Shown here piece after piece: positions 2,953-23,150 of a stretch of DNA of 64,000 bases. The notes under the pieces were generated by a model. The model worked only from the letters and a program-made list of their open reading frames with translations. It was not told the DNA's origin and ran no database searches. The position numbers and the translations under genes were made by a program. Each line of letters begins with the position of its first letter. The stretch's first letter is position 1. The stretch comes from Candidatus Hydrogenedentota bacterium (GTDB lineage Bacteria > Hydrogenedentota > Hydrogenedentia > Hydrogenedentales > SLHB01), in NCBI GenBank assembly GCA_035450225.1, contig DAOTMJ010000004.1, forward strand, positions 92,578 through 156,577, in the 5' to 3' direction.

Positions 2953-3050
2953 AGTTTCTTTGTCCGCAACTTCTGTGCATGGTACACAGAAGTTGCGGAC
3001 AAAGAAATCATATCCTTGATTGAGGCATTGCAGCTAAGCCGCGTTAGGAG
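2953..3050. repeat. Intergenic repeat element, copy A: perfect palindrome with 23-bp arms and 7-nt spacer (2955-3007) plus a 45-bp tail ending in AGGAG
   Basis: tttctttgtccgcaacttctgtg-catggta-cacagaagttgcggacaaagaaa, then atcatatccttgattgaggcattgcagctaagccgcgttaggag. About 95% identical to copy B at 23053-23150. Lies in the divergent spacer between the URO-D gene and the GH27 gene. Confidence 0.85.
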
Positions 3051-3190
3051 ATTTCCGTCTGTTGCTCGATTACGAGGACGATTATGAACACGAACACGAG
3101 ACAACCGCTCGCCTCCGGTCGTTGCTTTAGTTTAGCATATCCGGCATGATGCAGGGGAAACCCGTCTCTTGGAACCACAGGAGATTCTCC

Positions 3191-5152
3191 ATGAAACACG
3201 TATTGTGTGCGCTGGCCATTCTGGCGGCGATTCTCGCTGCGCCATGCTCGGACGGGGCCGACTTGACGGCCCGGAAAGCCCCGAAAAACGGCCTGTGGAT
3301 CGAAACGCTTGACCTGTCCGTCATGAATCAGGGGTTCAAGCGGCCGCAGGCCTGCAAATCGCTCATGGGATTCCCCATCGCGCTGGGCGGCGTCCAGTAT
3401 CCGCACGGCATTGGCACGCACGCCGTCAGCGAGTTTTTGATCGATCTCAAGGGGGCGGCGGTGCGTTTCGACGCGATGGCCGGCGTGGACGACGAGACCC
3501 GCGGGCAGGGCTCGGTCGCGTTTGAAGTGTGGGTTGACGATCGCAAGGTCTCGGAAACCGGCCTCATGCGCGCGGGTGACAAGCCGAGGGAAATCTCCGT
3601 GGATCTCACGGGCGCTCGGTATCTTCTGCTCATGGTGTGCGACGGCGGCGACGGCACGAAACTCGATCATGCGGACTGGGCAGGGGCGTTGCTGACGCTG
3701 ATGCCCGGCGCGAAGGAAAAACCCGTCTCCATCGGCATCGGTTCGGAACCCCCGCCGCCCATCGCATCCAGCATGAATCCGGAACCGGCCATTCACGGGC
3801 CGCGCATCACCGGCGCGACGCCGGGGCGGCCGTTTCTGTTCCTGATTCCCGCGACGGGCGAAGGGCCGCTGACGTTCGAGGCGCGGGACCTTCCCGCCGG
3901 TCTCGTCCTCGACTCGACGACAGGCATCATCACGGGCGCGCTGAAACAAGCGGGAAGCACGGATGTCCTGTTGACGGCGTCCGGGCCAAAGGGAAAGGCC
4001 TCGCGAACGCTGACCATCGCCGGCGGCGAAAACATGCTGGCCTTGACCCCGCCCCTCGGCTGGAATTCATGGAACGTCTGGGGCGTGGTCGTGGACGACG
4101 AGAAAGTCCGCGCCGCCGCCGATGCGCTGGTATCGAGCGGACTCGCCGCGCACGGTTTCCAATACGTAAACATTGACGATTCCTGGGAAGGCGACCGCGA
4201 TGCAAAAGGTGTCATTCAGACCAACAAGCGTTTTCCGGACATGGCCGCCCTCGCGGACTATGTCCACGCGAAGGGTCTGAAACTCGGTATCTACTCGTCG
4301 CCGGGACCGAAAACCTGCGCCGGTTACACGGGCAGCTACCGGCATGAACAGCAGGATGCCGACACCTATGCGGCATGGGGGATTGACTATCTCAAGTACG
4401 ACTGGTGCAGCTACCGCGACATCGCGAAGAGCGCCGAACCGGAGGAACTCAAAAAGCCTTATCGCCTCATGCGCGAAGCCTTGAACCGCTGCGGCCGCGA
4501 CATCGTCTTCAGTATTTGCCAGTATGGAATGGGGGAGGTCTGGACATGGGGCGCGGAGGTAGGCGGCAATCTGTGGAGAACCACCTATGACATCGGGGAC
4601 ACGTGGGAAAGTGTGTCCGCCATCGGTTTCGCGCAAAGCGACAAAGCGCCCTATGCCGGGCCGGGCCATTGGAACGATCCCGACATGCTCGTCGTGGGCA
4701 AGGTGGGTTGGGGACCGAACGTGGCCCCGACCCGGCTCGCGCCCAACGCCCAAATCACCCACATCACGCTGTGGTGCATGTTGGCCGCGCCGCTGCTCAT
4801 CGGATGCGATCTGGTGCAACTAGACGATTTCACCCGGGCCCTGCTCACGAACGACGAAGTCCTCGACGTGGACCAGGATCCGCTTGGCCAGGCCGCCACG
4901 CGCCGCAGGCAGGAAGGCGCCTGCGAAGTCTGGGCGCGCCCCCTCTTCGACGGGACGACCGCCGTCGCCCTGTTCAATCGAGGCCCCATCAGGCGTCCCG
5001 TTACGGCTTCATGGGACGATGTCGGAGTCAAGGGCCGACAGCCCGTTCGCGATCTATGGCGGCAAAAAGACTGGCCGCCCGCCGAAGGTTCGATAACCGC
5101 CGAAGTCCCCGGACGCGGAGCGGTCCTGCTGAAAATCGGAAAGGTGCGCTGA
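3191..5152 (+). CDS. Alpha-galactosidase (GH27) with N-terminal NPCBM domain and Ig-like linker, secreted
   Basis: Track ORF 3146..5152. Start set at MKHVLCALAILAAILAAPCS (signal peptide) with AGGAG 8 nt upstream. NPCBM-like N-terminal region. GH27 hallmarks LGWNSWN, NIDDSWE, LKYDWC. C-terminal beta-sandwich. Confidence 0.85.
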   Translation: MKHVLCALAILAAILAAPCSDGADLTARKAPKNGLWIETLDLSVMNQGFKRPQACKSLMGFPIALGGVQYPHGIGTHAVSEFLIDLKGAAVRFDAMAGVDDETRGQGSVAFEVWVDDRKVSETGLMRAGDKPREISVDLTGARYLLLMVCDGGDGTKLDHADWAGALLTLMPGAKEKPVSIGIGSEPPPPIASSMNPEPAIHGPRITGATPGRPFLFLIPATGEGPLTFEARDLPAGLVLDSTTGIITGALKQAGSTDVLLTASGPKGKASRTLTIAGGENMLALTPPLGWNSWNVWGVVVDDEKVRAAADALVSSGLAAHGFQYVNIDDSWEGDRDAKGVIQTNKRFPDMAALADYVHAKGLKLGIYSSPGPKTCAGYTGSYRHEQQDADTYAAWGIDYLKYDWCSYRDIAKSAEPEELKKPYRLMREALNRCGRDIVFSICQYGMGEVWTWGAEVGGNLWRTTYDIGDTWESVSAIGFAQSDKAPYAGPGHWNDPDMLVVGKVGWGPNVAPTRLAPNAQITHITLWCMLAAPLLIGCDLVQLDDFTRALLTNDEVLDVDQDPLGQAATRRRQEGACEVWARPLFDGTTAVALFNRGPIRRPVTASWDDVGVKGRQPVRDLWRQKDWPPAEGSITAEVPGRGAVLLKIGKVR

Positions 5153-5197
5153 AAATCGCGATCGGAAAAATCCCGCGTGACCGCTGCGCCGGCTCAT

Positions 5198-5968
5198 TCA
5201 TTGCTTGCGGGCAATCACCAGCATCTCGAAATTTTCCGGCGTCAGGGCGTTGTCCCGCGAAAAAGCGCCCAATTTCGCGCCGAAGATTTCAATGCGGGCG
5301 TAGCCGAGCGTCTTCAACAGCCAGGTGATCTCACACGGCACGTAGTAGCGTTCGTTGCAGGAAAGGGCCTTCTTGTTTCCGGAGTCGTCCTCGAATTCCA
5401 CGACATTGAAATCGCGAAAAGTCATCAGATCAAAGCGATTCTTCCCGCAGGCGCTCGTGTCCTCCTGTTTCGCTTCGGCATAGAACGCCTCCACATTATG
5501 GAACAAGGGGAACAGCCCGTTGAGCGTGGTGAACAGGAACACGCCATGGTCGTTCAGGGAACGTGTCACGTTCTTCAGTATCTCGAAATTCATCTCGTCC
5601 GTTTCCATCAACGAGAATCCGCCCTCGCACAGCATGATGGCCGCATCGAATTCCGCGTGAAATGGAAGCGCCCTCGCATCATGCCGCAGGAACTCGATGC
5701 TCAGACCTTGTGCCGTTGCCTTCTCCCGTGCTCTCGCCAATTGCGATTCGGACAAGTCTACCCCCGTTACGCGATAACCCCGCTTTGTCAACTCGATCGC
5801 GTGCCGCCCGGTGCCGCAGCCGACATCGAGGATCCTCAGCGACTTGTCAAACCCAAGTTCCTTCTCGATGAAATCGCATTCTCCCTGCGTGCCCTGCGTG
5901 AAGGGCTCCTTGTCGTACTTTTGTCCGTAGTTTTCAAACAGGCTCTCATACCATTGCTTTTCACTCAT
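5198..5968 (-). CDS. Class I SAM-dependent methyltransferase
   Basis: LDVGCGTGRHAIEL (motif I) and overall Methyltransf_11/25-like layout. The 5177..6205 + ORF is its shadow. Confidence 0.85.
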   Translation of the reverse strand: MSEKQWYESLFENYGQKYDKEPFTQGTQGECDFIEKELGFDKSLRILDVGCGTGRHAIELTKRGYRVTGVDLSESQLARAREKATAQGLSIEFLRHDARALPFHAEFDAAIMLCEGGFSLMETDEMNFEILKNVTRSLNDHGVFLFTTLNGLFPLFHNVEAFYAEAKQEDTSACGKNRFDLMTFRDFNVVEFEDDSGNKKALSCNERYYVPCEITWLLKTLGYARIEIFGAKLGAFSRDNALTPENFEMLVIARKQ

Positions 5969-6114
5969 ACGTCACTCTGTTTTCCTTGTACTTATTGCGA
6001 TTCTTCTGCCGTTAGCAACCCTCTTGCCGGCGCCGGCAGGATCCCGGTTGGCCGCCGTGAAGTAGTGCGAATGCCGCGTCGGATCGTCCATCAACAAAGT
6101 ACCCGCTACGCTTT

Positions 6115-6369
6115 TTATAAGCCCCTCTTGATGTCGCACGACGTCGGCGGACGAGGAGGCAAAGACTCCAGCAGGGGACGAAGTTGTTCCGGCACAGGAA
6201 CCTGATTTTCAACATAAAACCGCTGAACGGCCCATAATATTTGATTGAGTCGCTGAGGATTCTCCACCAACTTCGGTACGCCGATCGCCCATTCCGGAAT
6301 GCGCGCTTCTAAATCCTTTTCAAGTGTTTCGGCTTTCCCGGCCTTGAGTTGCTGAAGTATATTATGCAT
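6115..6369 (-). CDS. Hypothetical small protein (84 aa) in a low-GC island
   Basis: ORF with about 50% GC against about 64% for the window. Helical, no recognisable domain. Preceded upstream by tandem dyad sites. Could be non-coding. Confidence 0.3.
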   Translation of the reverse strand: MHNILQQLKAGKAETLEKDLEARIPEWAIGVPKLVENPQRLNQILWAVQRFYVENQVPVPEQLRPLLESLPPRPPTSCDIKRGL

Positions 6370-6437
6370 ATCAAGTCACTTGATTACATTTTTGAGAGTA
6401 CCGTGTTCTCGGAGACGTGAAGGTCTCGGAATGTAAC

Positions 6438-6490
6438 GCCGATTTCCAAATCGGCTTGCTGAAACACGACATGCCGATTGGGAAATCGGC
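6438..6490. promoter_or_regulatory. Two tandem near-identical dyad-symmetric sites (GCCGATTTCCAAATCGGC and GCCGATTGGGAAATCGGC) spaced 35 bp centre to centre
   Basis: Each 18-mer is an inverted repeat (8-bp arms), and the two are near-identical. This is a typical layout for a dimeric or tetrameric repressor operator pair. Lies 65-125 bp upstream of the 6115..6369 minus ORF. Confidence 0.3.
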
Positions 6491-6793
6491 GCTACCAAGC
6501 GGCCATTTTCAATTTCAGCACAAGATTTCGTTGCCTGATCCGGCATGAAATGGCCCGGAAATGCCAATCTTCGTGGAAATTTTCATCCTGGCAAACAGTG
6601 CTGAAAACCGTCAATGACTTCTTGTTCGAAGTCAAGGCAACTACGCGGCAGTTGGATTGGAAGGAGCGATGGCGAACGATTCTCAGCCGAATATTGACCA
6701 AGATCCTGAAAGAACGACCGCTTGCCTCTCCCAACCTGCTTCCGGCTCCGATATAAACTCGCACTCGGAAGGTCTATTCTTTACAAAATCGAG

Positions 6794-6832
6794 GGCGGCA
6801 AGACTCACGAACAGGGTCCTGCTGCCTTTTTT
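6794..6832 (+). terminator. Putative intrinsic terminator (7-bp stem with one G.U, then T6) on the plus strand
   Basis: ggcggca-N19-tgctgcc then tttttt. Would terminate a plus-strand transcript from the low-GC island (small ORF 6666..6839 or a non-coding RNA). Confidence 0.3.
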
Positions 6833-6897
6833 AGGATGAAACACGTCGTTGGTCAATCGCGTACATAAAGTCCATTTCGCGCATGCCAAGCCCCACC

Positions 6898-8355
6898 TCA
6901 GTGTATTTCCCAGCCGCCGCCCAGCGCCTTGATCAATAAGACCGTCGAAACCATCCGTTGGCTGAGAATTTGCGCCGCCGACAATTCGTTCGTCAACAAG
7001 GTCCGTTCGGCATCGATCATCTGCAGATAGTCGATCGTTCCAGCCCTATATTGAATCTGTGTCAGCTTCAGATATTCCCGTGCGGCATCGACCGCCTTTG
7101 CTTGGTTCTCCGCTTCATCGGCACGCACGTGCAGGTCCGTTAGCGAGTCCTCCACATCGCGAAATGCATCCAGAACGGTTCCTCGATAGGTGGCCTGAAG
7201 CTCATCGTACCGCGCTTGGGCTTTTTGCAGCGAGGCGCGCAATCGTCTCCCGTTGAAGATGGGCAGCGAGAGATTCGGCCCAAAAGACCACGTCCGCTGT
7301 TGCCATTTCAAGAGGTCGCCGGCATCCACGCTCTGGAAACCGGCCGTCCCGGTCAGACTTATGCTTGGAAAGAAATCCGCCTTGGCCACGCCGATCTCGG
7401 CACAGGCTGCGGCAAGATTCCGTTCGGCCTCCGCCACATCGGGACGCCGCCGCAATAGATCCGAGGGCAAGCCCGCCGGGATAATGGGTGGAACGGCATC
7501 CAACGGGTGGGGCTCCAACGAAAACTCTGATGGCGGACGGCCAAGCAGAATAGCGATGGCATGTTCGAGATCGGTGCGTTGCCGACGGACATCCGCGGCT
7601 TGTACACGCGCTGACTCCAACTGCACCTGCGCCTGCAACAAGCTGGTCGCATCGACCAATCCGGCATTCACTTGACATTGCGTTAGCTCCACTTGTTCTC
7701 GATAGAGCGCCAAGTTCCTCGTCAGGATTTCATCCTGCGCATCGAGCGAACGAAGTTCGAAGTAGTCTTTGGCCAAGTCCGCCAAGAGGGTTTGGCGGAC
7801 GACCTCCAACTCGCAAACGGAAGCCTGAGCGGTTGCATCGGCGGCCTCATAGGAACGGCGAAGCCGTCCCCAAATGTCGATCTCGTAGGAAACGTCGAAC
7901 GGCAACGAAAGGCGGGTACTGGTCGTGCCGGAAGACGATCCGCCGCTCTGGACGCCTTCCGCGCCGGGCGGAGAAACTGCACCAGACGCCGACACGCCCG
8001 GCGAACGTGAACGCGTGGCCGAGGGCGACAACGCTACAACGGGAAAGAACGAACTCCGGACGGACACGGTGGATGCGCGGGCCTGTTCGACGCGCGCCAT
8101 GGCCGCTTTCAGACTCTCATTGGCTTCGAGCGCTTTTGTCGCGAGGGCCGCGAGGTCAGGATCTTGGAAGAGCAACCACCAGTCGCTCCCAAAGCCGGGT
8201 TGTGCCTTTTCGCTTTCGGTGGCGCTTTTGTACTGTCCGGGCACATCCAGCGCCGGACGTTGATAATCCGGCCCCGTTACACAAGAGCAGACAACAAGGA
8301 TCAGACCGGATACCGCCGTCGCTTGCATCCATGCTCCCACTTTGTTTCCGCGCAT
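6898..8355 (-). CDS. RND/ABC efflux outer-membrane lipoprotein, NodT family (TolC-like)
   Basis: Track ORF 6898..8604, trimmed to MRGNKVGAWMQATAVSGLILVVCSC-VTGPDYQRP. The lipobox and GPDYxRP are hallmarks of NodT-family OMFs. Two TolC repeats. GGAGGG lies upstream of the chosen ATG. Confidence 0.85.
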   Translation of the reverse strand: MRGNKVGAWMQATAVSGLILVVCSCVTGPDYQRPALDVPGQYKSATESEKAQPGFGSDWWLLFQDPDLAALATKALEANESLKAAMARVEQARASTVSVRSSFFPVVALSPSATRSRSPGVSASGAVSPPGAEGVQSGGSSSGTTSTRLSLPFDVSYEIDIWGRLRRSYEAADATAQASVCELEVVRQTLLADLAKDYFELRSLDAQDEILTRNLALYREQVELTQCQVNAGLVDATSLLQAQVQLESARVQAADVRRQRTDLEHAIAILLGRPPSEFSLEPHPLDAVPPIIPAGLPSDLLRRRPDVAEAERNLAAACAEIGVAKADFFPSISLTGTAGFQSVDAGDLLKWQQRTWSFGPNLSLPIFNGRRLRASLQKAQARYDELQATYRGTVLDAFRDVEDSLTDLHVRADEAENQAKAVDAAREYLKLTQIQYRAGTIDYLQMIDAERTLLTNELSAAQILSQRMVSTVLLIKALGGGWEIH

Positions 8356-8416
8356 ATTCCCTCCGCTCCCCGGACGTGATCCGATGGCCTCCACCACCGT
8401 TTTTCTCGAATACAGC

Positions 8417-9622
8417 CTATTCATGGCGCAGCGCCTCGATTGGATCCAGCCGGGCGGCCTTCCGTGCCGGGAAATACCCGAAAACCACGCCGATTGCCCC
8501 GGAAAACAAAAAACCGACGAGAACGATCGGCGCGTTGAAGACGAACGGCACTTGCAGGACGCCCGCAAGCGCAATCGAAGTGCCCAACGCAAGCAATATT
8601 CCAATCAGTCCGCCGAAAGAGGACAGAACGACCGCTTCCACGAGGAACTGCATCAGCACTTCCCGCTCCAATGCACCGATGGCGAGGCGTGTGCCGATTT
8701 CCCGCGTGCGTTCCGTAACCGATACCAGCATGATGTTCATGATGCCGATACCGCCCACCAACAGACTCACCGCCGCCACCGCGCCCAACAACCCGGTAAG
8801 AACCCGCGTGGTGCCCGAAAGCATCGTGGCGATCTCCTTGAGGTCCATTACGCTGAAATCATCCTCTTCGTTCGCGGACAAATGCCTGCGGACGCGCATC
8901 AGGCGCGAAATGTCCGCCTTGACCCGGTCGGTGGACTCACCCTCTTTGACAGAAACTTGGATGATGCCGATGTCTTCCTTACCCGCGATGCGCCGCTGGA
9001 ATGTGCGCAACGGAACGACGAGGAGGTCGTCTTGATCCGTGCCCATCGTAGACTGGCCTTTGCTTTCCAACAATCCAATCACCTCGCATGCGAGCTTGCC
9101 CAAACGCACCTTGCTGCCGATGGGGTCTTGGCCGCCAAATAGCTTGCCCCGGATCGTCTCGCCGATGACGCAGACCGCCACGCCCGCGCGCGTTTCGGCC
9201 TCCGTAAACGCACGGCCTTCTTTGATGCGCCGGTTGCTTACGGTGAAATACTCGACGGTGCTTCCGGTAACCGTGCTCGACCAATTCTCGTTCGCGTAGA
9301 TCACGGTCGAGGCGGCGCTCGCCGCAGGCGCCACGGCAGCCAGCGACGGGACCTCGCGGGCGATGGCTTCCGCATCGGCCAGCTTAAACGGCGCTCCGCC
9401 CGATTCCCTTCCCGGCCCCATACGCTTGCCCGGCGTAACCATCATCAAGTTACTGCCGAGGCTCGATATCTGTTCCGTGACCTGCTTGGTGGCGCCGCCT
9501 CCGAGGGTGACCAGGATGATCACCGCCGCCACGCCGATAATGATGCCCAACATCGTCAGGAAGGAACGCATCACGTTGCGGCGGAGTTCGCGTAATGCCA
9601 GTAGCAAGGCATTTCCTATCAT
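8417..9622 (-). CDS. macB: ABC transporter permease, MacB/FtsX family
   Basis: N-terminal TM helix, large periplasmic domain and C-terminal FtsX 3-TM bundle (…FGYFPARKAARLDPIEALRHE). Overlaps the ATPase gene by 4 nt. Confidence 0.9.
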   Translation of the reverse strand: MIGNALLLALRELRRNVMRSFLTMLGIIIGVAAVIILVTLGGGATKQVTEQISSLGSNLMMVTPGKRMGPGRESGGAPFKLADAEAIAREVPSLAAVAPAASAASTVIYANENWSSTVTGSTVEYFTVSNRRIKEGRAFTEAETRAGVAVCVIGETIRGKLFGGQDPIGSKVRLGKLACEVIGLLESKGQSTMGTDQDDLLVVPLRTFQRRIAGKEDIGIIQVSVKEGESTDRVKADISRLMRVRRHLSANEEDDFSVMDLKEIATMLSGTTRVLTGLLGAVAAVSLLVGGIGIMNIMLVSVTERTREIGTRLAIGALEREVLMQFLVEAVVLSSFGGLIGILLALGTSIALAGVLQVPFVFNAPIVLVGFLFSGAIGVVFGYFPARKAARLDPIEALRHE

Positions 9623-10353
9623 TGGACGTTGTCCTTGTGTGAATGATCGGTGTCGATCAGTCCATCCTTGAAATGAACGGTACGCTTGGCATAGGCGGCC
9701 ATATCGGGTTCATGGGTCACCATGACGATGGTGATTCCCTGTTCCCGGTTGAAAGCCGTCAGCAAATCCATGATCTCGACACTGCGCGCGGAATCCAGAT
9801 TGCCGGTCGGTTCGTCCGCCAGTAGGACCAACGGTTGCGTGACGATCGCACGCGCGATGGCGACCCGTTGCTGCTGGCCGCCTGACAGTTCGCCCGGCGT
9901 GTGGTGTTCCCAGCCGCTCAATCCCACGTCGCACATGGCCTGTCGGGCGCGCGCATGCCGCGTATGGGCTGCTTCACCGCGGTAGATCAATGGCAACTCG
10001 ACATTCTCGAGCGCCGAAGTACGATTCAGGAGATTGAAGCCCTGGAACACGAAGCCGAGGCAATGACGGCGCAACAGCGCCCGCTGATTGCGCGTGAGTT
10101 GGCCGACTTCGATGCCCTGAAAGCGATACGTACCGTCCGTGGGCGTGTCCAAACAGCCTAGAATGTTCATGCAGGTGCTCTTGCCCGACCCGCTCGGACC
10201 CATCACCGCGACGAACTCGCCCGGATAGATCCGCAAGTCCACACCGCGCAACGCTTCCATGGTGGCGGTGCCGGTCCCATAGACCTTGGTCACCCCCACG
10301 AGTTCGATGAGGGGCGCGTCGGTTGTGCCATGGCCATTCTTGTCGCTCATCAT
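9619..10353 (-). CDS. ABC transporter ATP-binding protein (MacB/LolD-type)
   Basis: Walker [10 protein letters not shown], signature [14 protein letters not shown], Walker [13 protein letters not shown]. Start trimmed to MMSDKNG, which overlaps the upstream stop (ATGA). Confidence 0.9.
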
Positions 10354-11645
10354 TTCAACGTCGCCACTTCGGTCACCAGTTCCATGCCCGGTTCGAGTTC
10401 GCCAGCGACGATCTCCGTCACCTTCCCGTCGGTCATTCCCTTGGTAATCGCAATGGATACAAGTTGCCCATTGCGCACAGTCCACACGCACTGGTCCTTG
10501 TTCTTTGCTCTGGAGTCATCGCGCGGCGCCGCCTTTTCACGCGGCGGGTGTGGCAGGATTGCGCTCAGCAGACTGCCGCCGCCGGACTTCTTCGCCGTCT
10601 GTGTTTGAGGCGGCGAGAACCGCAACGCCGCATTCGGCGCCAGTAGCACATTCTCTCGTTTGTTTACTATCAACGAAGCCGTGGCCGTCATCCCCGGCCG
10701 CAGAGTCAGATCCGAATTGTCCACCTTCAATACCGTTTTGTACGTCACAACCCCATCGACCGTTTCCGAACCGAAACGCACTTGCGTAATCCGGGCCGGA
10801 AACACACGATCCGGGTAGGCATCCACGGTGAACGACGCCTCTTGGCCTTTCTTCACAAGTCCCACGTCGGCTTCATCGACATCCACCAGCAGTTGCATCT
10901 GTGCCAGATCCTCCGCCAGCGTAAAGAGCACGGGCGATTGGAACTGCGCGGCGACCGTCTGTCCCGGCTCGACCGAACGAGTCAGCACGACCCCGTTGAT
11001 GGGGGAATGAACAACGGCTTTCGCCAAGTCGGACTTGTTCGCGTCCAGAGTCGCTTGCGCTTGCGCCACGGCGGCTTTCGCGCTGGCTTCGTCGGCTTGC
11101 GCCCGCTCTTGAACGGCCTTCTGTGCATCGAAATCGTGTTGCGAAGGCATCTTGCCGCCGCTCTGTTCGCGGACCTCTTTCAGTCGGGCCATCTGGGCTT
11201 CTGTCTCTCGAACGGTCGCTTGCGCCTGAAGCAGTTTGGCGCGTGCGGCTTCGAGTGCGGCAGCGGACTGGAGCGATTGCGCCTCGAGTTTCGATGTGTC
11301 GAGCCGCGCCAAGACTTGGCCAACTTCGACCTCGTCGTTGTAATCGACATCTACGGACATGATCGTCCCCGATACTTCGATGCCGACCTCCACTTCCTTG
11401 ATCGGTTCCAGGGCGCCGGTTGCGCTTACCGTCACCACCAAGTCTCCCCGGGTTACGGGCTGCGTCTCATATTTCAAGGAACTCGATGCGGTCCTCGAGT
11501 GCCACGAGACGCCCGCAGCCAATGCCGCGGCTGCAATCCCGATTCCCAAGAAATATCGCAGCATGCGGGATCCGCGTGAACGGGACTTCCCCAGTCCAAG
11601 CATCTTGGCAACATTGGATTTCGGATCGGCACACGGATTCGTCAT
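10350..11645 (-). CDS. macA: Efflux periplasmic adaptor, HlyD/MacA family
   Basis: Signal/TM anchor, long coiled-coil (EAQ…AQA…), lipoyl and beta-barrel domains. Start set at MTNPCADP with AAGGAG 6 nt upstream. Confidence 0.85.
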   Translation of the reverse strand: MTNPCADPKSNVAKMLGLGKSRSRGSRMLRYFLGIGIAAAALAAGVSWHSRTASSSLKYETQPVTRGDLVVTVSATGALEPIKEVEVGIEVSGTIMSVDVDYNDEVEVGQVLARLDTSKLEAQSLQSAAALEAARAKLLQAQATVRETEAQMARLKEVREQSGGKMPSQHDFDAQKAVQERAQADEASAKAAVAQAQATLDANKSDLAKAVVHSPINGVVLTRSVEPGQTVAAQFQSPVLFTLAEDLAQMQLLVDVDEADVGLVKKGQEASFTVDAYPDRVFPARITQVRFGSETVDGVVTYKTVLKVDNSDLTLRPGMTATASLIVNKRENVLLAPNAALRFSPPQTQTAKKSGGGSLLSAILPHPPREKAAPRDDSRAKNKDQCVWTVRNGQLVSIAITKGMTDGKVTEIVAGELEPGMELVTEVATLK

Positions 11646-11655
11646 GGCATACTCC

Positions 11656-12625: not shown

Positions 12626-12675
12626 TGGCGAACAAAGCAATCATACCCTTGATTGAGACTTTGCGACTGCGCCGC
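12626..12675. repeat. Degenerate partial copy (right palindrome arm plus tail) of the 2953/23053 repeat element
   Basis: ggcgaacaaagcaatcatacccttgattgagactttgcgactgcgccgcc versus gcggacaaagaaatcatatccttgattgaggcattgcagctaagccgcgt, about 75% identity. Also in a divergent intergenic region. Confidence 0.5.
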
Positions 12676-12800
12676 CTTGGGCTGGTTTTGTCCTTCTGGG
12701 GCAAACAGACACCTTGTTTTTGATGATGGCGCGGTTGTTGTCCGATAATGGGACGGGCAAACCGGCCTTTGTTCCCGTCGGAGCGAAAGGAGGTTTTGAC

Positions 12801-15740: not shown

Positions 15741-16142
15741 CCGGCTGTCCCGTGATGCTACGTGATCGGCGACCATGCCGGGATCGTCGCCTGCGGCTGA
15801 ACTATTTTGCGTCTTGGTATCCACTGGGTTCACTAATCCATGCGCCTACATGCGCGTTGCATGTCCAATCGTTCCATTGGACACGGTCAAGCGGAACAAC
15901 ATCCTCACTTTTCTCTGAACTTCCGCGTTGGGGTTATTTTAGATGATAATTACGCCATTGTCAATACTTTTCATGGAATTTATTGCCTTGATAAGAGAAT
16001 AAATTGATATTTGTGATAAATAATAAAACCATAAACTCCACTTTTGGTCATTAAACTGCCAATAATTATGGAAAAACATCAGCCTCAATAACGTATAAGT
16101 CTTTTTATTTCAATGTGTTGTATTGCGGTATTAAGAGGCAGG

Positions 16143-16197
16143 AAAAAAAAGGAGGCGAGTGCGGGCAGCGGGGGGACTGCCACGAAGCGCACTCGCC
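16143..16197 (-). terminator. Strong intrinsic terminator on the minus strand (10-bp GC stem with nested stem, then U8)
   Basis: Plus strand reads aaaaaaaa-gga-GGCGAGTGCG-ggcag-cgggggga-ctgcc-acgaag-CGCACTCGCC, so on the minus strand the hairpin is followed by TTTTTTTT. No minus-strand protein gene lies upstream of it. Confidence 0.55.
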
Positions 16198-16316
16198 GGT
16201 GGTGGGAACCAGTCATTGCTGACTGTGGCTGTGAGTACAAGCTGGGGGAAAGGCTTCGCTCACAGCTGTCTATGGAACACCGCATGTTCCAAAATCTATT
16301 CCCGATAAAATTTTTT

Positions 16317-16332
16317 TGGAACCGCCGTTGCC
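16317..16332 (+). promoter_or_regulatory. Sigma-54-like -24/-12 element TGGAAC-N5-TTGCC upstream of the HEAT-repeat gene
   Basis: GG and GC dinucleotides spaced exactly as in TGGCAC-N5-TTGCW. Lies 55 nt upstream of the start codon. No enhancer-binding-protein gene was seen nearby. Confidence 0.25.
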
Positions 16333-16389
16333 GTTTGACATTGGCGGAAACCTTTATCAAGATTATACCATGAAATCGGGGATTGTGTG

Positions 16390-17430
16390 ATGCGGTGGTG
16401 TCTGTACGGAATAATGCTGGTTCAGATTGTTACATCGGCGGAGGATGAAGCCGTGGCCCGGCGGACGGCGGATCGCGCGATGGAATTGATGCGCCGTGGT
16501 TCGGTGGACTGGGTCGTCTTTTCCGTTTCATCGGGCATGCCTTCGGTTCCGCGTCCGCAGACGGCTTCGCCCGTTCTTGAGGAAACCGCGCAGGCCGAGG
16601 ATCCGGAAACGCGTTTTCAAGCGTTGGAGGCGCTTTCGGAATCTGGAAATCCTGATTACCTGGATCGTTTTCTGGTTGCGCTGAACGATCCATCGCCGCC
16701 CATTCGCGAATTGGCGGCGGGGTATCTCGCGAAACAGGACGCGGGTCAAGTCTTTGCGCGGCTCATGGAATTGTTTGCGCGCGGGGGCGGCGAAGCATTG
16801 GCCCGGCTCGATCCGGCCATCCCTCTCTTGGGGGCAAGATTTGAGCCGCGATTCATGGAAGCGCTTGCGGATCCGGACGAGACGCCCGCGCGCAAGCGGA
16901 TCGCCGCCCATTGCCTGGGCCGGATGAACAGTGTCGCGGCGATACCGGCGCTGGCGGAATGCGCGTGGAATTCGGACGAGGCGACGGCCCTGGCCTGCAT
17001 ACAGGCTTTGCTGGCCGTTCGGGATCCGATAATCATCGCACGGCTGGGCGAATTGGCGGGGCATTCGCTTCCGAGCATCCGCAAGGCAGCCATTGAAGGG
17101 CTTGCCGATGCAGGCGGGCCGGAGGCGTTTGACGTGCTGGGACGGCTGGCCATGGCGCCTCCGGACGGCAACGAGGAAACAGCACGCGAGGCGGTGTTGG
17201 CGCTGGGCGCGATGAACACGGAAGCCGCCATTCCGCTCTTGATCGAAATCATGCGGACCAACGTGGCGGCACGGCGGACGGCCGTGCAGGTCCTGCGCCA
17301 ATTGACCGGCGACGATGCCGGCGATCAGCCCTCCGAGTGGCAGGCGTGGTACGAGCGGCGGATCAAGGCCCTGCAACAGCAGATCGAGCAGGAGCAAAAA
17401 TCACTTTACGATGTCGAATACATGAAATGA
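16390..17430 (+). CDS. HEAT-repeat (PBS-lyase-type) protein
   Basis: Repeated …AAxALGxxxxxxAIPxLxxLLxDxDxxVRxxAAxAL… units. The track start is GTG at 16387. The ATG at 16390 was chosen. Confidence 0.75.
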   Translation: MRWCLYGIMLVQIVTSAEDEAVARRTADRAMELMRRGSVDWVVFSVSSGMPSVPRPQTASPVLEETAQAEDPETRFQALEALSESGNPDYLDRFLVALNDPSPPIRELAAGYLAKQDAGQVFARLMELFARGGGEALARLDPAIPLLGARFEPRFMEALADPDETPARKRIAAHCLGRMNSVAAIPALAECAWNSDEATALACIQALLAVRDPIIIARLGELAGHSLPSIRKAAIEGLADAGGPEAFDVLGRLAMAPPDGNEETAREAVLALGAMNTEAAIPLLIEIMRTNVAARRTAVQVLRQLTGDDAGDQPSEWQAWYERRIKALQQQIEQEQKSLYDVEYMK

Positions 17431-17454
17431 GCCGGAAGGCACAGGGAGTAAATT

Positions 17455-18570
17455 TTGAAAGAGTCATGGGACGCCACAGCAATCCGCCCGCGCGTGATGT
17501 CCGTGGACGCGCTGCGCGGCTTCGACATGTTCTGGATCATGGGCGGCGGCGAGGCGGTCAAGCAGTTCATCCGGCTGTTCGGCGATCCGATGCCGGCCGG
17601 CATAGCGCGCCAGTTCAGCCATGTCGAGTGGGAAGGATTCGCGGCGTGGGATTTGATCATGCCGCTGTTCCTGTTCATCGTGGGCGTGGCGATGCCGTTT
17701 TCGGTGGGCCGGCGCATCGAACGGGGCGACACGCGCGCCGGCATATACCGGCACACGGCCCGGCGCGTCATCGTTTTGTTCATTCTTGGCATGATTGCGC
17801 AGGGCCACCTACTGACTTTCGATCTCGATCGCATTCACATCTACTGCAACACGTTGCAGGCGATTGCCGCCGGCTATCTCGTCGCGACGATGGCGCTGGT
17901 TCACCTGCGCATCGCGGGGCAGGCGGCCTTGTGCGCGGCGCTGCTGATCGGATTTTGGCTGATCATGATTCTTGTGCCCGTGCCGGGGCACGGCGCGGGC
18001 GTGCTGACGCCCGACGGCAATCTGGCGATGTTCATTGACGAGGCCGTGCTGGGCCGGTTTCGCGATGGCACACATTACACGTGGATCCTCAGCAGCATGG
18101 GGTTCGCGGGGTCGGTGCTGTTGGGCATGTTCGGCGGACATATCCTGAAATCGGAGCGTCTCACGCAAGGCCGCAAGGCCTTCGCGCTGGTGGGCATGGG
18201 CGTGGCATTGACGGCCGGGGGATTGATTTGGAGCCTCTGGTTTCCGATCATCAAGCATATCTGGACCAGTTCCTTCGTGCTGTTTGCCGCAGGACTGAGT
18301 TATCTTTTGCTGGCGGCGTTCTACACGGTCATGGATGTGTTTGGACACAAAACGTGGGCGTTTCCCTTTGCAGTCATCGGCGCGAACGCCCTGCTGGCCT
18401 ATCTGGCCGAAGGACTTGTCAGCGCGCATGGCATCGCGGCGTGGTTGTTCGGTGAAAGCGCCCGCGAATGGCCCGCAATGTATTCATTCCCCTTTGCGCT
18501 GCTGGTATTCGTCCTGTTGTGGATCGGCCTTTACGTCCTTTACCGGAAACGAGTCTTCGTCCGCGTGTGA
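17455..18570 (+). CDS. DUF5009/HGSNAT-like acyltransferase-family membrane protein
   Basis: MSVDALRGFDMFWIMGG motif then about 10 TM helices, typical of the heparan-alpha-glucosaminide N-acetyltransferase-like family. The start may be the internal M at 17497. Confidence 0.7.
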   Translation: MKESWDATAIRPRVMSVDALRGFDMFWIMGGGEAVKQFIRLFGDPMPAGIARQFSHVEWEGFAAWDLIMPLFLFIVGVAMPFSVGRRIERGDTRAGIYRHTARRVIVLFILGMIAQGHLLTFDLDRIHIYCNTLQAIAAGYLVATMALVHLRIAGQAALCAALLIGFWLIMILVPVPGHGAGVLTPDGNLAMFIDEAVLGRFRDGTHYTWILSSMGFAGSVLLGMFGGHILKSERLTQGRKAFALVGMGVALTAGGLIWSLWFPIIKHIWTSSFVLFAAGLSYLLLAAFYTVMDVFGHKTWAFPFAVIGANALLAYLAEGLVSAHGIAAWLFGESAREWPAMYSFPFALLVFVLLWIGLYVLYRKRVFVRV

Positions 18571-18796
18571 TGCGGGCATCGTTTTCGCTCCATTCTTTGA
18601 AACCCTCCCGGTCCCAATTGCCGCATGCAGAAAGCCATTTTGCGTAAAATAGACCACGGTTTTTCGGGATAGCGTTCTTGGGATACCGCGTCTTCGCGAT
18701 GAAGAAGAAGTTTCCCCGATCTCTTTTATTTTGGACAACACTGACAGGCGGATTTGAGTTTGGAATTACCTGGCCCGAACATCCATGTCCTGTTTT

Positions 18797-18870
18797 CCAT
18801 CTGCGTGCATCTGCGTCATCGGCGGATCGTGTGGTCTTCCGCCGATGACGCAGATACGCGCAGATATCGA
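18797..18870. repeat. Long imperfect palindrome (perfect 15-bp core arms 18812-18826/18838-18852, 11-nt loop) with internal direct repeat CATCTGCGTG/CATCTGCGTC
   Basis: tgcgtcatcggcgga-tcgtgtggtct-tccgccgatgacgca, extended to arms of about 30 bp with a few mismatches. Sits in a 490-bp convergent spacer and has no flanking U-tract. Confidence 0.6.
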
Positions 18871-19058
18871 AAAGATGAACGGGATAACGAGGTCAAACGT
18901 GATTCCTTGCGGTATTGTGGCTTTTTTACAATTCTTTTAGACAGCAATGAATTGAAATCAGCCGTCGTGAACGAATTTTTCGTCCATGAGACACCTCCGA
19001 TTTCCACTGCCGAATTCAGGTTGAAACGCGCCTCCTGTATTACCTACAGCCGGAGTTG

Positions 19059-21266
19059 TCACCGGGCATCGTTCATGCCCCATTGAAGGGTGCGATATGT
19101 TTTGAACATCGCCGGATCGCCGGGGAGCCAGACGTGCATCAGGAGGGGAAAGGGCGCGAGGTCCCGCACACGGTAAAAACCGATTGGGCGAAGCGAATCG
19201 GGCACGGCAATGCCCTGAAAATCGGCGATCGGCTCCCATGCGTTCTTCCGATAATGCGGCGAGAAATCGAACACCGGAAAGAAATACCGGACGGTCGAGA
19301 GGTTCTCCCATTCGGGGAGATCGTCTTCGCGGTCCCATGCGGCGTCTGCCGGTTTGTAGCGAAAGCCAAGACGGACGGGCGCGGACCTGTTGTTCGCACA
19401 TTCAAAATCAATCGCGAAATAATGAGCGAACACATCCGGCGCCAACCAGGCGCGCTCCACATCCGGCATGCGGGCCGGCGCAATCAGGATCCGTCCATCC
19501 GCGTCTTGCTGCTGGATCATGGGAATCGGTTCAAGTGCGGCGTTCCGGTAATTCATGATAATCGGCGCCATCGCGGAGGTTTGATATTTTCGTGCCGCAT
19601 ACAGCGGGGCGCCAAGCAGGACGGCCAGCAGGATCGTCGCCAGGATGGGCCGCGCGACCAGCGTTCCCGCCGGCGCATGGGGCAGTCCTGCGGCCGCCAA
19701 AGCAGCCCGCGGCGATTTCCCCCGTATCCAGCCGTCCGCGAAGCGCACCAGCAGGCTCAGGAGAAATCCGGCCGGCCAATAGGCCGCGAAATCCAGGTGA
19801 AACGCATGGCGCATCTGAAATGCAAGACTCGTGTAGCCGCAGAAATACAAGGGGATGATCGCCGCGGCCAACCCCATGCGCATCCCGTGCAGACTGATTG
19901 CCAGGAACGCCGCCGCGGCATAATAAACGCCATAGGCGCGCAAATGACGCGCGAGCGGGGCATGAAGCGCCGCGGATTTCCGCATGCCCATGACGGATGC
20001 ATCGAAACTAGCGTTTTTCCCCTGTAATCCGCGGATGCAGCGCAATGCCGCACCGTACCATCGCGCAACGATGTCCGCCGGATACAGGGCCGCCAGATCG
20101 CAGACCATGCGCCGGCCGACCTGCTCGGCTTCGGTGCTCCAAATGTCCAGATCGGTGCGCAGGGACCACGCGGCCGCCGTGTAAATCAATGACACGGCCG
20201 GATGAAACGGCGCTTCGGCGGCGGCGTTCAACAGGAGGCCCGTTTTGGCGTCCACGGCCGCCTGCCGCTTGTCCGCCTGCGTCTGATTGCGATAATGCGA
20301 GATGACCGCATGCACGTAAAAGTCGTGATCGTCCAGCATCGGAACGGATGAGGAGCGCGCGGTGTCCGCGTCGGCCATCATAAAATGTGCAAAACCCTGG
20401 ATCAGATAATATGCATTGTTTCCGCCGGTGTCTCTGTTCATTCGCAACACAGGATAGGCGGGAATGAGAAAACACCCCACAAAGATCGCCATGGCGGCGG
20501 CTTTCAGCCGAAACCGTCGTTTTTCCGTTCCCGGCGAGAAGGCGATCGCCGCCAAGATTGCGGGCACGCCAATGAGGGTGTCCTGGCGGAATCCGAAACC
20601 GAAACCGGTGAACAGGCCGGCGGCGCATGCTAGCGCCAGGAGCGTTTTTCCGGACGGCCTCCGCGCAATCAGATACCCCGTGGCAAGGATCGCGCCCAGA
20701 ATGAACGGCGCTTTGCAAAAATCGCGCAGGGCGGGCAGATAGGTCAGGTACACGGGAGACGACACAAACAGGATCGCGCATGCGAGGCTGATCAGGCGCG
20801 TCATTCCGAGGCGGAATATGCCGTAAGCCAGCGCGGCGGTCAGTCCGCCGGCCACCGAAACGATCCAATTCAATATCCCCCATGAAATGCCAAAGATTCG
20901 CCACAGGATCCCTGTCGCATACAAAAGATATATACGATCGTAGATGAATTTATCGCGTCTGGCCAGGCAGATCGGGGTGGACGGCATCTGCTCCGGCGAC
21001 AATGTTTCGGTTTTTTGGAGGAGAAAATCGGCGAGGGCGGGCGGATAGAATCCGGGAACGATTTCCGACATGCCGTGGCCCATGGTCCACAGCGCCGGGG
21101 GAACGAACATCATGAGCGAATCGCCATGGCGGTAGCCGGGCGTCTCGCCCGCCAGCGTCAGATAGGTCCAGTTGGCCAGCGACGCCAGAACAAACAAGGC
21201 GGCGGCGATTGCGGCATCACGCCGCGAGAAGGTATGATCGCTTCGCCTGAGTTCATCGGGACGCAT
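19059..21266 (-). CDS. Polytopic membrane glycosyltransferase, GT-C fold (ArnT/PMT-like), putative
   Basis: More than 12 predicted TM helices in the N-terminal 450 aa plus a large C-terminal soluble domain. Genomic association with a GT2 polyprenol-phosphate sugar synthase and a LAB_N protein. Confidence 0.5.
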   Translation of the reverse strand: MRPDELRRSDHTFSRRDAAIAAALFVLASLANWTYLTLAGETPGYRHGDSLMMFVPPALWTMGHGMSEIVPGFYPPALADFLLQKTETLSPEQMPSTPICLARRDKFIYDRIYLLYATGILWRIFGISWGILNWIVSVAGGLTAALAYGIFRLGMTRLISLACAILFVSSPVYLTYLPALRDFCKAPFILGAILATGYLIARRPSGKTLLALACAAGLFTGFGFGFRQDTLIGVPAILAAIAFSPGTEKRRFRLKAAAMAIFVGCFLIPAYPVLRMNRDTGGNNAYYLIQGFAHFMMADADTARSSSVPMLDDHDFYVHAVISHYRNQTQADKRQAAVDAKTGLLLNAAAEAPFHPAVSLIYTAAAWSLRTDLDIWSTEAEQVGRRMVCDLAALYPADIVARWYGAALRCIRGLQGKNASFDASVMGMRKSAALHAPLARHLRAYGVYYAAAAFLAISLHGMRMGLAAAIIPLYFCGYTSLAFQMRHAFHLDFAAYWPAGFLLSLLVRFADGWIRGKSPRAALAAAGLPHAPAGTLVARPILATILLAVLLGAPLYAARKYQTSAMAPIIMNYRNAALEPIPMIQQQDADGRILIAPARMPDVERAWLAPDVFAHYFAIDFECANNRSAPVRLGFRYKPADAAWDREDDLPEWENLSTVRYFFPVFDFSPHYRKNAWEPIADFQGIAVPDSLRPIGFYRVRDLAPFPLLMHVWLPGDPAMFKTYRTLQWGMNDAR

Positions 21267-21309
21267 CGGCCGCCGTGTTCCTTTCCCCGGTTATTATAGG
21301 GAGCGCGCC

Positions 21310-21987
21310 ATGGCCGGGGCGAACGGCCGTGCCGTGTGGAGCAATCCGTATATTTTGGAAACAGCATACACCATAGTGGGCGTGGCGGGATCCGTCCTGT
21401 TCTTCGGGCGATTCTACGTCCAGTGGATCGTCGCCGAGATCAAAAAACAATATGTGGTACCCGTCTCGTTTTGGTATATGAGCGCCGCGGGATCGCTGAT
21501 GCTTTTCGTCTATGCCTTTGGGCGCGGATCTCCGGGCGGCACCTTGGGCGTTTGCTTCAATCTCATCGTATATTGCCGCAACCTTATCCACATCTGGCGC
21601 GAACGCGGGGTGCTGACCCCGTTCTGGAACGTGGCCGCGCACGTTTTCGCGTGCGTGACAATCGGAATTGCATCGGCGCTGACCTTTTTCACGTGGCGGG
21701 CCGGTTACAGCAACACGACGGAATTCTGGGCGTGGTCGGCCGTTTGGGCGGTGGGGCAGGCCGTGTTTTTCCTGAGATTCCTCATCCAGTGGGCCGTAAC
21801 GGAAATCCGGCACAAGAGCATCATACCCGCATCGTTCTGGTGGCTGAGCCTTGCCGGCCTGTTTCTGCACGGGAGTTATTTTTTTCATCGCGGCGACTGG
21901 CTTTTGGCCATCGGGACCATTTCCGACGGGTTGCCCTATGTTCGCAATCTGTGGCTGATGCGGCGGTATCCGCCCGCCGGGGAATAA
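21310..21987 (+). CDS. Lipid-A-disaccharide synthase N-terminal (LAB_N) domain protein, tandem LAB_N repeats
   Basis: Two copies of the FFGRFYVQW…PxSFWxxSxxGSxxLxxY motif. GGAG 7 nt upstream of the ATG. Confidence 0.7.
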   Translation: MAGANGRAVWSNPYILETAYTIVGVAGSVLFFGRFYVQWIVAEIKKQYVVPVSFWYMSAAGSLMLFVYAFGRGSPGGTLGVCFNLIVYCRNLIHIWRERGVLTPFWNVAAHVFACVTIGIASALTFFTWRAGYSNTTEFWAWSAVWAVGQAVFFLRFLIQWAVTEIRHKSIIPASFWWLSLAGLFLHGSYFFHRGDWLLAIGTISDGLPYVRNLWLMRRYPPAGE

Positions 21988-22112
21988 CGCCGGCCATGAA
22001 AGACCCGTCGGGCGATCGATACATGGAACGCATCATGGCGCGGGAAACGTCGAACAAAAAACCAGTCCCGCGTTCACGATGAAAGGGACAAGCCGCTTTA
22101 TGGATACCCGCC

Positions 22113-22838
22113 TCACGCCCGCCCGGTCAGGCGGCGCCAGGCGATCTTCAACAGGCTATAACCGACGGAAACGAAATTGCGTGGGTGAAAGGCCTTTGAA
22201 ACGCCGTGCTGCCGTTCTTCACTCGGGACTTCGACCTGCACATAGGTCGCGCCGCGCGCAAGCAGCCGGGTAATCAATTCGGCTTCATAGGCGAATCCCC
22301 GCGTGCCGGGATGATGCCGGACGACATTTTCGCGCAGGTGGACGACCGCGCCGTTGTAATAGCCGATATGGTTCCCGCTGATGGCGTTGACGAGGGCGGT
22401 AAACGTGCGCGAAATAATGCGCCGAAACAACGGACGATTGTCCAGTGCGCCAAAGTACGGTATGATCATGTCCGCCTGTCCCAGTTTCGACAACAATGCG
22501 ACGATGACTTCCTGCCGTTCGACATTGTCGCCGTTGACCAGCATGTAGTATTTGCCGCGGGCGATGCGTGCGCCCTCTTCGTGCATGACGCCGAGTCCCT
22601 GGTGGCGGTCATGGGTTTTGAGGGTGATGGGAATGTCCGGGTGCGCTCTTTGAAATGCTTCGACAACGGCCACCGTGCCGTCCGTCGAGCAGTCGTCCAT
22701 CACCAGAATTTCATACGAAACCGGCACTTCCGCCACGGCTTTCATGATTACGTCAAAGGTGCCCGTGACGTTTTTTTCCTCGTTGAGACAGGGCACAAAA
22801 AACGTAATATCGGCGGAGGGCGCCGTTTCGTTCAGCAT
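22113..22838 (-). CDS. Glycosyltransferase family 2, polyprenol-phosphate sugar synthase type (ArnC/DPM1/GtrB-like)
   Basis: ITFFVPCLNEE, VMDDCSTDGT, and DxD-like NGDN. Trimmed from the track ORF to MLNETAPS. Confidence 0.85.
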   Translation of the reverse strand: MLNETAPSADITFFVPCLNEEKNVTGTFDVIMKAVAEVPVSYEILVMDDCSTDGTVAVVEAFQRAHPDIPITLKTHDRHQGLGVMHEEGARIARGKYYMLVNGDNVERQEVIVALLSKLGQADMIIPYFGALDNRPLFRRIISRTFTALVNAISGNHIGYYNGAVVHLRENVVRHHPGTRGFAYEAELITRLLARGATYVQVEVPSEERQHGVSKAFHPRNFVSVGYSLLKIAWRRLTGRA

Positions 22839-23052
22839 GGACCGGCTTCCTTCGATAGGCCGCAAGTGTTCAGCCCAACAACAAGGCCATTGTACCGGCG
22901 TGCGGCCCTAGGTGCAAACCCGCGCATTGCCTCATGCCAAATCCGGTTCCTCGCAGGAATCTATGCAATGAGTAATTGGACAAGCATGCGCCAACGCGTG
23001 TATTTCCAAAATTGGAAACGCATTGGAAAGCGCGCAGGCAAGCACATATTGT

Positions 23053-23150
23053 CAGTTTCTTTGTCCGCGACTTCTGTGCATGGTACACAGAAGTTGCGGA
23101 CAAAGAAATCATATCCTGGATTGAGGCATTACGGCTGAGCCGCGTCAGTT
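23053..23150. repeat. Intergenic repeat element, copy B (palindrome 23055-23107, one G.U-compatible arm substitution)
   Basis: Same orientation as copy A and exactly 20100 bp downstream. Lies in the divergent spacer between the GT2 gene and the aldo/keto reductase gene. Confidence 0.85.

Follow-up and report, generated by a model that had tools for sequence, protein, structure and literature searches.

A lineage-restricted hairpin-and-tail repeat of the REP/MITE class in an uncultured Hydrogenedentota lineage

Repetitive extragenic palindromic (REP) sequences are palindromes of 20–40 bp with stems of 6–13 bp and a short loop (PMC3733652); over 90% of them keep an unpaired tag, GTAG or CGTC, at one of their ends. 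Here we describe a 93-nt repeat, designated E, that occurs in three copies within a window of 64 kb (the whole stretch of DNA analysed, from contig DAOTMJ010000004.1 of a Candidatus Hydrogenedentota bacterium), and we compare it with the best-known groups of small bacterial repeats. E has several features in common with REP sequences, bacterial interspersed mosaic elements (BIMEs) and REPINs, the repeats linked to REP-associated tyrosine transposases (RAYTs) (Di Nocera et al. 2013, PMC3733652). Like them, it is an extragenic, non-coding, multi-copy hairpin repeat with an unpaired xTAG tetranucleotide at the foot of its hairpin; it occasionally forms head-to-tail and inverted pairs and takes part in a BIME-like mosaic with other small modules. 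One copy lies within an ABC-transporter operon, as does the malE-malF REP, and recalls the action of REP/BIME sequences in E. coli operons. There are also differences. The stem of E has 23 bp rather than 6–13 bp, its palindrome spans 53 nt rather than 20–40 nt and encloses a 7-nt loop, and the palindrome is followed by a fixed non-palindromic tail of 40 nt. The tag is mostly TTAG or ATAG and behaves as flank rather than as part of the element. Moreover, about 22 copies were seen, no RAYT was found for E, and many copies are in divergent promoter spacers, whereas REP sequences lie mostly downstream of genes, in co-directional or convergent settings.

Members of the IS200/IS605 family insert 3′ of a short sequence, have no terminal inverted repeats and generate no target duplication. 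E resembles the ends of these elements and of their non-autonomous derivatives, the palindrome-associated transposable elements (PATEs), in the lack of both terminal inverted repeats and evident target duplication, in its asymmetric hairpin ends, and in insertion 3′ of a short conserved sequence that resembles its own 3′ terminus and that tandem copies have in common. In contrast to IS200/IS605 ends, the left hairpin of E starts at the very first base, leaving no room for a separate guide tetranucleotide, and its long stem is perfectly paired, whereas theirs are short and imperfect. On the right, E has a weak hairpin (a 5-bp GC stem that stops 5 nt short of the end). We could not assign guide/cleavage pairing, and found no tnpA/tnpB partner with E ends. 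A third group, the bacterial miniature inverted-repeat transposable elements (MITEs) of the Correia/NEMIS, ERIC and RUP families, are likewise intergenic repeats of about 100 nt. When transcribed they form long duplexes, they may contain sites resembling those of integration host factor (IHF), and they can alter the stability of neighbouring mRNA. Nevertheless, in these MITEs the terminal inverted repeats extend over the whole unit and a duplication of TA or the like is present, whereas E consists of a one-sided palindrome and a tail. E has not been catalogued before; it is a lineage-restricted member of the wider REP/MITE class, unusual in combining a perfect 23-bp hairpin at its terminus with a 40-nt tail whose last bases are TTAG.

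E as a dispersed family

Metagenome contigs were scanned with a 26-nt pattern spanning the junction of the right arm and the tail, which matched 26 loci. Together with loci found later, and after removal of re-assemblies of the same site, these represent 22 distinct flank contexts. The count is a minimum (at least 22), since several copies are at contig ends (L009, L014, L018, L023 and L027), indicating that the family breaks assemblies. All contexts belong to one uncultured Candidatus Hydrogenedentes lineage from digesters and sludge, in which E occupies intergenic spacers of any kind with a loose preference for (T/A)TAG. Exact protein matches place the window itself on JGI contigs from anaerobic digesters, such as the 181-kb Ga0116147_1000016, and its aldo-keto reductase has 100% identity to a protein assigned by NCBI to a Candidatus Hydrogenedentes metagenome-assembled genome. 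In long contigs its density is roughly one copy per 50–100 kb, as exemplified by the 257-kb Ga0116193_1000006 with 3 copies and the 469-kb Ga0116255_10000006 with 2. Neither the tail pattern nor the palindrome pattern had a match in 185,579 bacterial and archaeal species, each represented by one genome. The palindrome pattern also had none in viral contigs, and a BLAST search with copy 1 of the window returned none in plasmid or phage collections.

The consensus of the family, TTTCTTTGTCCGCAACTTCTGTG-CATGGTA-CACAGAAGTTGCGGACAAAGAAA-TCATATCCTTGATTGAGGCATTGCGGCTGAGCCGCGTTAG, is 93 nt long and comprises a 53-nt near-perfect palindrome at the extreme 5′ end, then the 40-nt non-palindromic tail with its TTAG terminus. 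The boundaries (TTTC...GCGTTAG) are sharp, with similarity ending abruptly on both sides. Copies differ from the consensus at 0–7 bases (2.7% per site), one of them being identical to it, and the changes are mainly private. Such a star-like pattern indicates a recent spread of E from a single master sequence. In our view, E is very probably a dispersed selfish repeat. Two rearranged loci were also observed. The first, at L011 (3576–3671 and 3669–3766; the same as L009 1–175 and L019), is a head-to-tail doublet with a single TAG in common; both units have the same private T-to-G arm change, so the doublet is of local origin. The second, at L017 (1955–2052), has the loop TGCCATG instead of CATGGTA (the reverse complement of the usual loop is TACCATG), which suggests that the centre of the palindrome was flipped at the DNA level.

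Within the window, two full copies and one decayed copy of E were identified (Table 1), and a profile search found no other. A repeat search of the window returned the full copies as a direct repeat of 95 nt (2953–3047 and 23054–23148) in the same orientation, with 94% identity and a start-to-start spacing of 20101 nt, and also a family of three members, covering the last 54 nt, to which 12628–12681 belongs at 80% identity. The 23-nt arm occurs four times in the window, twice per full copy on opposite strands (chance expectation 0 in 100 shuffles), and the first part of the tail has exactly three matches. Copy 1 differs from the family consensus at 2 positions and has a perfect 23-bp stem; it is preceded by TAG (2952–2954) and followed by G. 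Copy 3, preceded by CAG, has 4 differences, one of which creates a G.T mismatch in the stem. The loop of both is CATGGTA. The 8 nt immediately 3′ of copy 3 (TTTCTTAG) correspond to the first bases of E again (CAG-TTTCT-TAG) and look like the stump of a tandem E partner that may have been deleted. Copy 2 was matched by nhmmer over model positions 42–98 (E=5e-11); in place of the long stem it has a 5-bp mini-hairpin, TTCGC-GGATG-GCGAA, and it is also present in the strain variant L029. Its decay indicates that at least some E copies are not maintained.

An earlier note on this DNA, made from the window sequence, described these copies. It reported the full copies as about 95% identical and in the same orientation at two divergent sites, recognised the decayed third copy without a left arm, and stated that E was absent from the rest of the window; all of this agrees with our results. 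Pfam likewise agrees with the flanking genes as they were named there, all in divergent pairs: URO-D-like/GH27 at copy 1, TetR/hypothetical at copy 2 and GT2/aldo-keto reductase (AKR) at copy 3. A perfect 53-bp palindrome had been assigned to each full copy, which is true of copy 1, with its 23-nt arms, and not of copy 3 with its G.T mismatch. AGGAG, taken to be the end of the tail, lies outside E: it follows only 3 of the 22 copies, and the family consensus terminates ...GCCGCGTTAG(G). The exact 20.1-kb interval given there has no meaning. Copies 1 and 3 have no derived changes in common and each is nearer to the consensus than to the other, as expected of independent insertions and not of local duplication. 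We take all three window copies to have inserted independently rather than to form a device that connects the neighbouring genes, and in annotation they should not be read as a joint regulatory device for the GH27, AKR and TetR-adjacent genes. On the practical side, direct repeats of 95 nt at a distance of 20 kb can give rise to deletions, and the family also disrupts assemblies.

Two smaller features were noted in the tail. The inverted repeat AATCA-N6-TGATT is matched in all three window copies and is the best-kept portion of decayed copy 2. Overlapping it, AATCATATCCTTG fits 8 of the 9 specified positions of the IHF consensus, WATCAANNNNTTR; the probability of such a match by chance was estimated at about 0.03. 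In the family alignment, the GC hairpin of the 3′ end module (helix 2) is 95% paired and has no covariation.

Table 1. Positions in the window of E copies, their internal features and neighbouring modules
Feature	Position	Strand	Description
Full copy 1 of E (93 nt)	2955–3047	+	left arm 2955–2977, loop 2978–2984, right arm 2985–3007, tail 3008–3047 (TTAG end)
Decayed partial copy 2 of E	12626–12680 (or 12682)	+	last ~10 nt of right arm and tail, 80% identity
Full copy 3 of E	23056–23148	+	arms 23056–23078 and 23086–23108, loop 23079–23085, tail 23109–23148 (CAG end)
Tail inverted repeat AATCA-N6-TGATT	3006–3021	+	read from the sequence; (nearly) invariant in the 20-copy alignment
3′ end module	3030–3047	+	consensus GCGGC-TGA-GCCGC (5-bp GC hairpin), then GTTAG; copy 1 has GCAGC-TAA-GCCGC-GTTAG
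Neighbouring module outside core E	2903–2941	-	NNACGA hexamer run, then ACGAACAGAGTGGCGGTCGGATG; directly left of copy 1, toward the URO-D-like gene
Neighbouring module	3068–3102	+	hexamer-periodic run GATTACGAGGACGATTATGAACACGAACACGAGAC, 21 nt 3′ of copy 1
Neighbouring module	23160–23202	+	ACGA-rich run and ACGAACAGGGTGGCGGCCGGATG, after copy 3

Insertion site and mode of mobility

The two ends of E behave differently. The trinucleotide that precedes E is TAG in 13 of the 22 copies, the rest having AAG, TTG, CAG, GAG or TAT. By position, T is found in 17, A in 20 and G in 20 copies, and one position further out 13 copies have T, 5 have A and 3 have G. At the other end, the last three bases of E itself are TAG in 18 of 22 copies, and the first base after E is G in 16. 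The left trinucleotide deviates in 7–8 copies against about 2.4 expected from the divergence of the interior (P about 0.002–0.007), whereas the right TAG deviates in 4 (P=0.21) and thus has the same conservation as the interior. The left site being more variable than the interior, and the right site not, suggests that the left TAG is a partly conserved target and the right TAG is E's own. TAG is found at left and right alike in 12 of 22 copies, and CAG in one. However, the left and right variants agree in only 1 of the 10 deviating copies, left AAG, TTG and GAG occurring together with right TAG. This absence of co-variation argues against duplication of TAG.

By eye, the consensus has no terminal inverted repeats: its first bases (TTTCTTTGTCC) bear no relation to the reverse-complemented 3′ terminus (CTAACGCGGCT), apart from a subterminal CCGCAA that occurs in both. 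In L044, a copy of E directly follows the terminal TTTTAG of a different repeat. Judging from sequence, the ends and the tandem and nested copies fit what would be expected if a TTAG-ended element inserted into (T/A)TAG^G.

We consider it reasonably likely that E is a lineage-specific, non-coding, non-autonomous mobile element of the REP/MITE class, probably moved in trans by an HUH-type transposase. The HUH mechanism itself, taken as the route of mobilisation, is proposed only tentatively. In this model, E would be mobilised in trans, most likely in the form of a hairpin of single-stranded DNA, and the enzyme responsible would be a tyrosine transposase of the HUH class, either IS200/IS605-like or RAYT-like. 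The enzyme would cut after the TTAG of the flank and after E's own TTAG, and the excised E would be pasted without target duplication. Once transcribed, a copy of E would introduce a 23-bp duplex into the mRNA, which might serve as a substrate for RNase III or block an exonuclease and in this way may affect expression; the copy within the Opp-type ABC-transporter operon, described below, is the clearest candidate for such an effect. It follows from the presence of E that this uncultured phylum has its own REP/MITE-like repertoire, and its well-defined TTAG^G joint provides a handle for tracing the transposase responsible in complete Hydrogenedentes genomes. In about 390 kb of sequence examined, no RAYT gene flanked by E was seen, and the three open translations of E, searched against a protein database, matched six short spurious open reading frames (ORFs) and no transposase.

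Several observations weigh against E being a mobile element moved in this way. In IS608-type ends, guide and cleavage sites are several bases away from a short imperfect hairpin, whereas in E the hairpin foot would directly adjoin the cleavage site on the left. No transposase is encoded next to any E copy or between the inverted pairs, and no transposase domains were detected among the scanned window genes (1–58 kb), over which the earlier statement that the window has no transposase holds. The orientation of E relative to local GC skew is unbiased (6 vs 7), though the loci are short and the test is weak. Moreover, no empty site was recovered from orthologues, so the absence of target duplication is statistical and not directly seen. 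The closest relatives of the AKR gene (80–87% identity) have another upstream neighbour and no E, but are too diverged to give the exact joint. For the Opp binding protein, identity to its nearest relatives does not exceed 70%, and these are likewise too diverged to reveal it. About 22 copies is also a low number for a REP family, and a perfect stem of 23 bp far exceeds the 6–13 bp of REP stems (PMC3733652).

Genomic context, functional tests and rival explanations

Genes around the copies were called with a basic gene finder that relies on codon usage in the window, its training set, and that reproduces the Joint Genome Institute (JGI) calls at the AKR locus. The spacers holding E are divergent in 7 cases, convergent in 2, co-directional with E in 3 or 4 and co-directional against E in 6 (about 10 co-directional spacers together). 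E is found in both orientations and next to functionally unrelated genes, including those for GH27, AKR, an MttB-like methyltransferase, pseudopilins, a sugar-nucleotide transferase, ABC transporters and a GH95-like protein. Unrelated neighbours and the use of all spacer types argue against a regulon or a fixed element of 5′ untranslated regions. Two inverted pairs (L017 and L025/L031) enclose an MttB-like gene and pseudopilin/GH genes. A composite transposon was considered for these pairs and rejected, because the genes between them have ordinary metabolic or pilin functions.

One copy (L038 10064–10161) resides inside an Opp-type operon, in sense orientation, between the genes for the substrate-binding protein and the first permease. 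The same junction can be compared in three related genomes. In L043 the stop and start codons overlap (ATGA, 4129–4132) and there is no spacer; in L042 (4105–4610) the junction holds an unrelated 505-bp insert bounded by inverted CGCGAATGAACGCGAAT arrays; and in the focal lineage (L038, 10004–10294) it holds a 290-bp spacer bearing E. The complete lack of a spacer in L043 shows that the 290-nt E-bearing spacer is lineage-specific. Small repeats seem to have landed at this junction repeatedly.

We next consider whether E functions as RNA. When the copy region is folded as RNA, both strands are highly stable (plus strand -49 kcal/mol, z -6.3; minus strand -55 kcal/mol, z -9.2). In the 20-copy alignment, the 23-bp helix is 94.6% paired. 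However, the covariation score (0.030) equals that of control structures slid by 1–3 columns. The sole truly compensatory change is C-G to T-A in L008, and two further apparent double changes are the product of a misaligned decayed copy. Among single changes in the arms, two produce a plus-strand wobble (copy 3 and L028), two a minus-strand wobble (L010 and L017) and about six break the pair on both strands. Since a wobble results from any transition, that of copy 3 has no strand information. The idea that its G.U pair, possible on the plus-strand RNA only, signals constraint at the RNA level was therefore rejected in view of the 2:2 split between strands and of covariation no different from that of the slid controls.

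Searches for known functional signals gave no matches either. Rfam 15 had 0 matches in the whole window at gathering thresholds, and at permissive thresholds returned only sub-threshold models of miRNA precursors, which score any long hairpin. No promoter-like or terminator-like site was found within E; its T-rich run is inside the 5′ arm and not 3′ of the stem, unlike the layout of an intrinsic terminator. A coding tail was also considered, as changes in the frame KEIISLIEALRLSRV appeared synonymous among the three window copies. It was rejected: family-wide there is no codon pattern, the frame has no start codon, and downstream sequences join in differing frames. Regulatory and RNA readings of E are thus not supported.

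How do other explanations fare against these data? If E were a classical cut-and-paste MITE mobilised by a DDE transposase (e.g. an IS630/Tc1-like enzyme targeting TA or CTAG), the flanking TAG or TA would represent a target-site duplication. The small size of E, its non-coding nature, multiple copies and intergenic location would suit this explanation, as would the 12 of 22 copies with TAG on either side and the one with CAG on both. We nonetheless consider it unlikely, given the lack of terminal inverted repeats (CCGCAA, in subterminal position, being all that the ends have in common), the lack of co-variation between left and right trinucleotides, and a left site significantly more variable than the right one. 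That E is instead a selected cis-regulatory unit, either an operator or cruciform for one regulator or a structured RNA or small RNA gene coordinating its neighbours, seems very improbable. A very stable stem, the location of 7 of about 18 classifiable copies in divergent promoter regions, and the AATCA-N6-TGATT/IHF-like candidate site kept even in the decayed copy could all be cited in its favour. Yet the neighbours are unrelated, both orientations and every spacer type are represented, and conservation is uniform across the 93 nt with abrupt ends, like that of a transposed unit rather than a motif. Moreover, wobble pairs have no strand bias, covariation is essentially nil, neither promoter-like or terminator-like signals nor an Rfam family could be assigned, one window copy has been left to decay, and relatives with an 80–87% identical AKR do not have E upstream.

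Finally, a local duplication of a segment might have produced the window copies, or they might mark the two ends of a composite 20-kb unit, as their same orientation, 94% identity and 20.1-kb distance could suggest. This explanation, the fallback of the earlier note, is refuted by at least 19 further copies on other contigs (at least 22 contexts in all), by unrelated flanks, and by copies 1 and 3 each being closer to the consensus than to one another, with no derived changes in common. Of the three candidate explanations offered in that note, the MITE/REP-like element stands, on the strength of at least 22 dispersed copies with sharp ends and unrelated flanks. The shared operator or cruciform site does not, in view of unrelated neighbours, all spacer types and both orientations, and nor does the small structured RNA. 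Two kinds of recombination site were also examined and rejected on anatomy. Compared with an integron attC site, which has its R″ and R′ cores at the two opposite ends of a single imperfect hairpin, the 3′ GTTAGGN of E fits R′ (GTTRRRY), but the 5′ TAGTTTC lacks an inverse R″ core (RYYYAAC), and E copies are dispersed, not arrayed as in an integron. A dif-like site was rejected as well.

Other repeats and features of the window

E is not the only small repeat in this lineage. Hexamer-periodic NNACGA runs are found to the right of copy 1 and just 3′ of the copies in L013 and L018/L045 (L045 4091–4165), and in inverted form to the left of copy 1 and of the copy in L044 (~2040–2100). A second motif, M2 (ACGAACAGnGTGGCGGyyGGATG), is located to the right of copy 3 and of the Opp copy (L038 ~10225–10262), and inverted to the left of copy 1. 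NNACGA runs or M2 are present within 0–110 nt of 6 of about 23 E copies, in either relative orientation, and are almost absent elsewhere in the ~390 kb. Their reading frame is not constant. Yet another repeat, which we call Y, is ~150 nt long and comprises a hexamer array, CTCAAAACCCCGCGGTTATCGCACTCGCTAAATCAT... and TTTCTTGTTGTT..TAGAAGCCGGATTTTAAGG; it ends in TTTTA(A)GG, resembling the end of E. Y was observed at L026 320–446, L044 ~1950–2100 (minus strand) and L042 4470–4508, the last in an Opp spacer; it thus occurs both in the focal lineage and in a relative from the Hydrogenedentes with protein identity of about 68%.

A more conventional repeat was detected as well. The window (6433–6495) and L024 (8613–8675) each contain a REPIN-like doublet, an inverted pair of GCCGATTTCCAAATCGGC units with outer tags GTAAC/GTAGC, and about 20 nt of flank on either side is conserved between the two. 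A single unit of this REP is present at L015 (7351–7373). The GTAA/GTAG-tagged doublet in the same genomes indicates that REP-type repeats occur in the lineage of E. In this lineage, small modules together form a BIME-like mosaic in the intergenic DNA. One could go further and regard E as one module of an undescribed Hydrogenedentota system that also includes the NNACGA arrays, the ACGAACAGnGTGGCGG motif and Y, with a common TTAG^G joint. Such a system would use a single-stranded DNA transposase with a novel end architecture, in which the cleavage site abuts the 23-bp stem, unlike in IS200/IS605 or RAYT systems, and some copies would have been co-opted as operon-internal RNA processing sites. 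We regard this extended proposal as quite unlikely.

A few further features of the window were noted. At 18799–18865, before a gene for a 735-aa protein, there is an inverted repeat, ATCTGCGTGCATCTGCGTCATCGGCGGA...TCCGCCGATGACGCAGATACGCGCAGAT, with 28-nt arms that are 93% complementary and an 11-nt spacer; no second copy of it was present in the sequence examined. No tRNA was found in the window. The 1.3-kb region 50514–51806 has no called gene, though ORFs at 50182–51810 (plus strand) and 50668–51786 (minus strand) overlap it. The minus strand of 38973–45436 encodes a flagellar export cluster with FliQ/FliR/FlhB/FlhA-type Pfam domains, an SRP54-type GTPase (FlhF-like) and a MinD/ParA-type ATPase, suggesting that the organism is motile.

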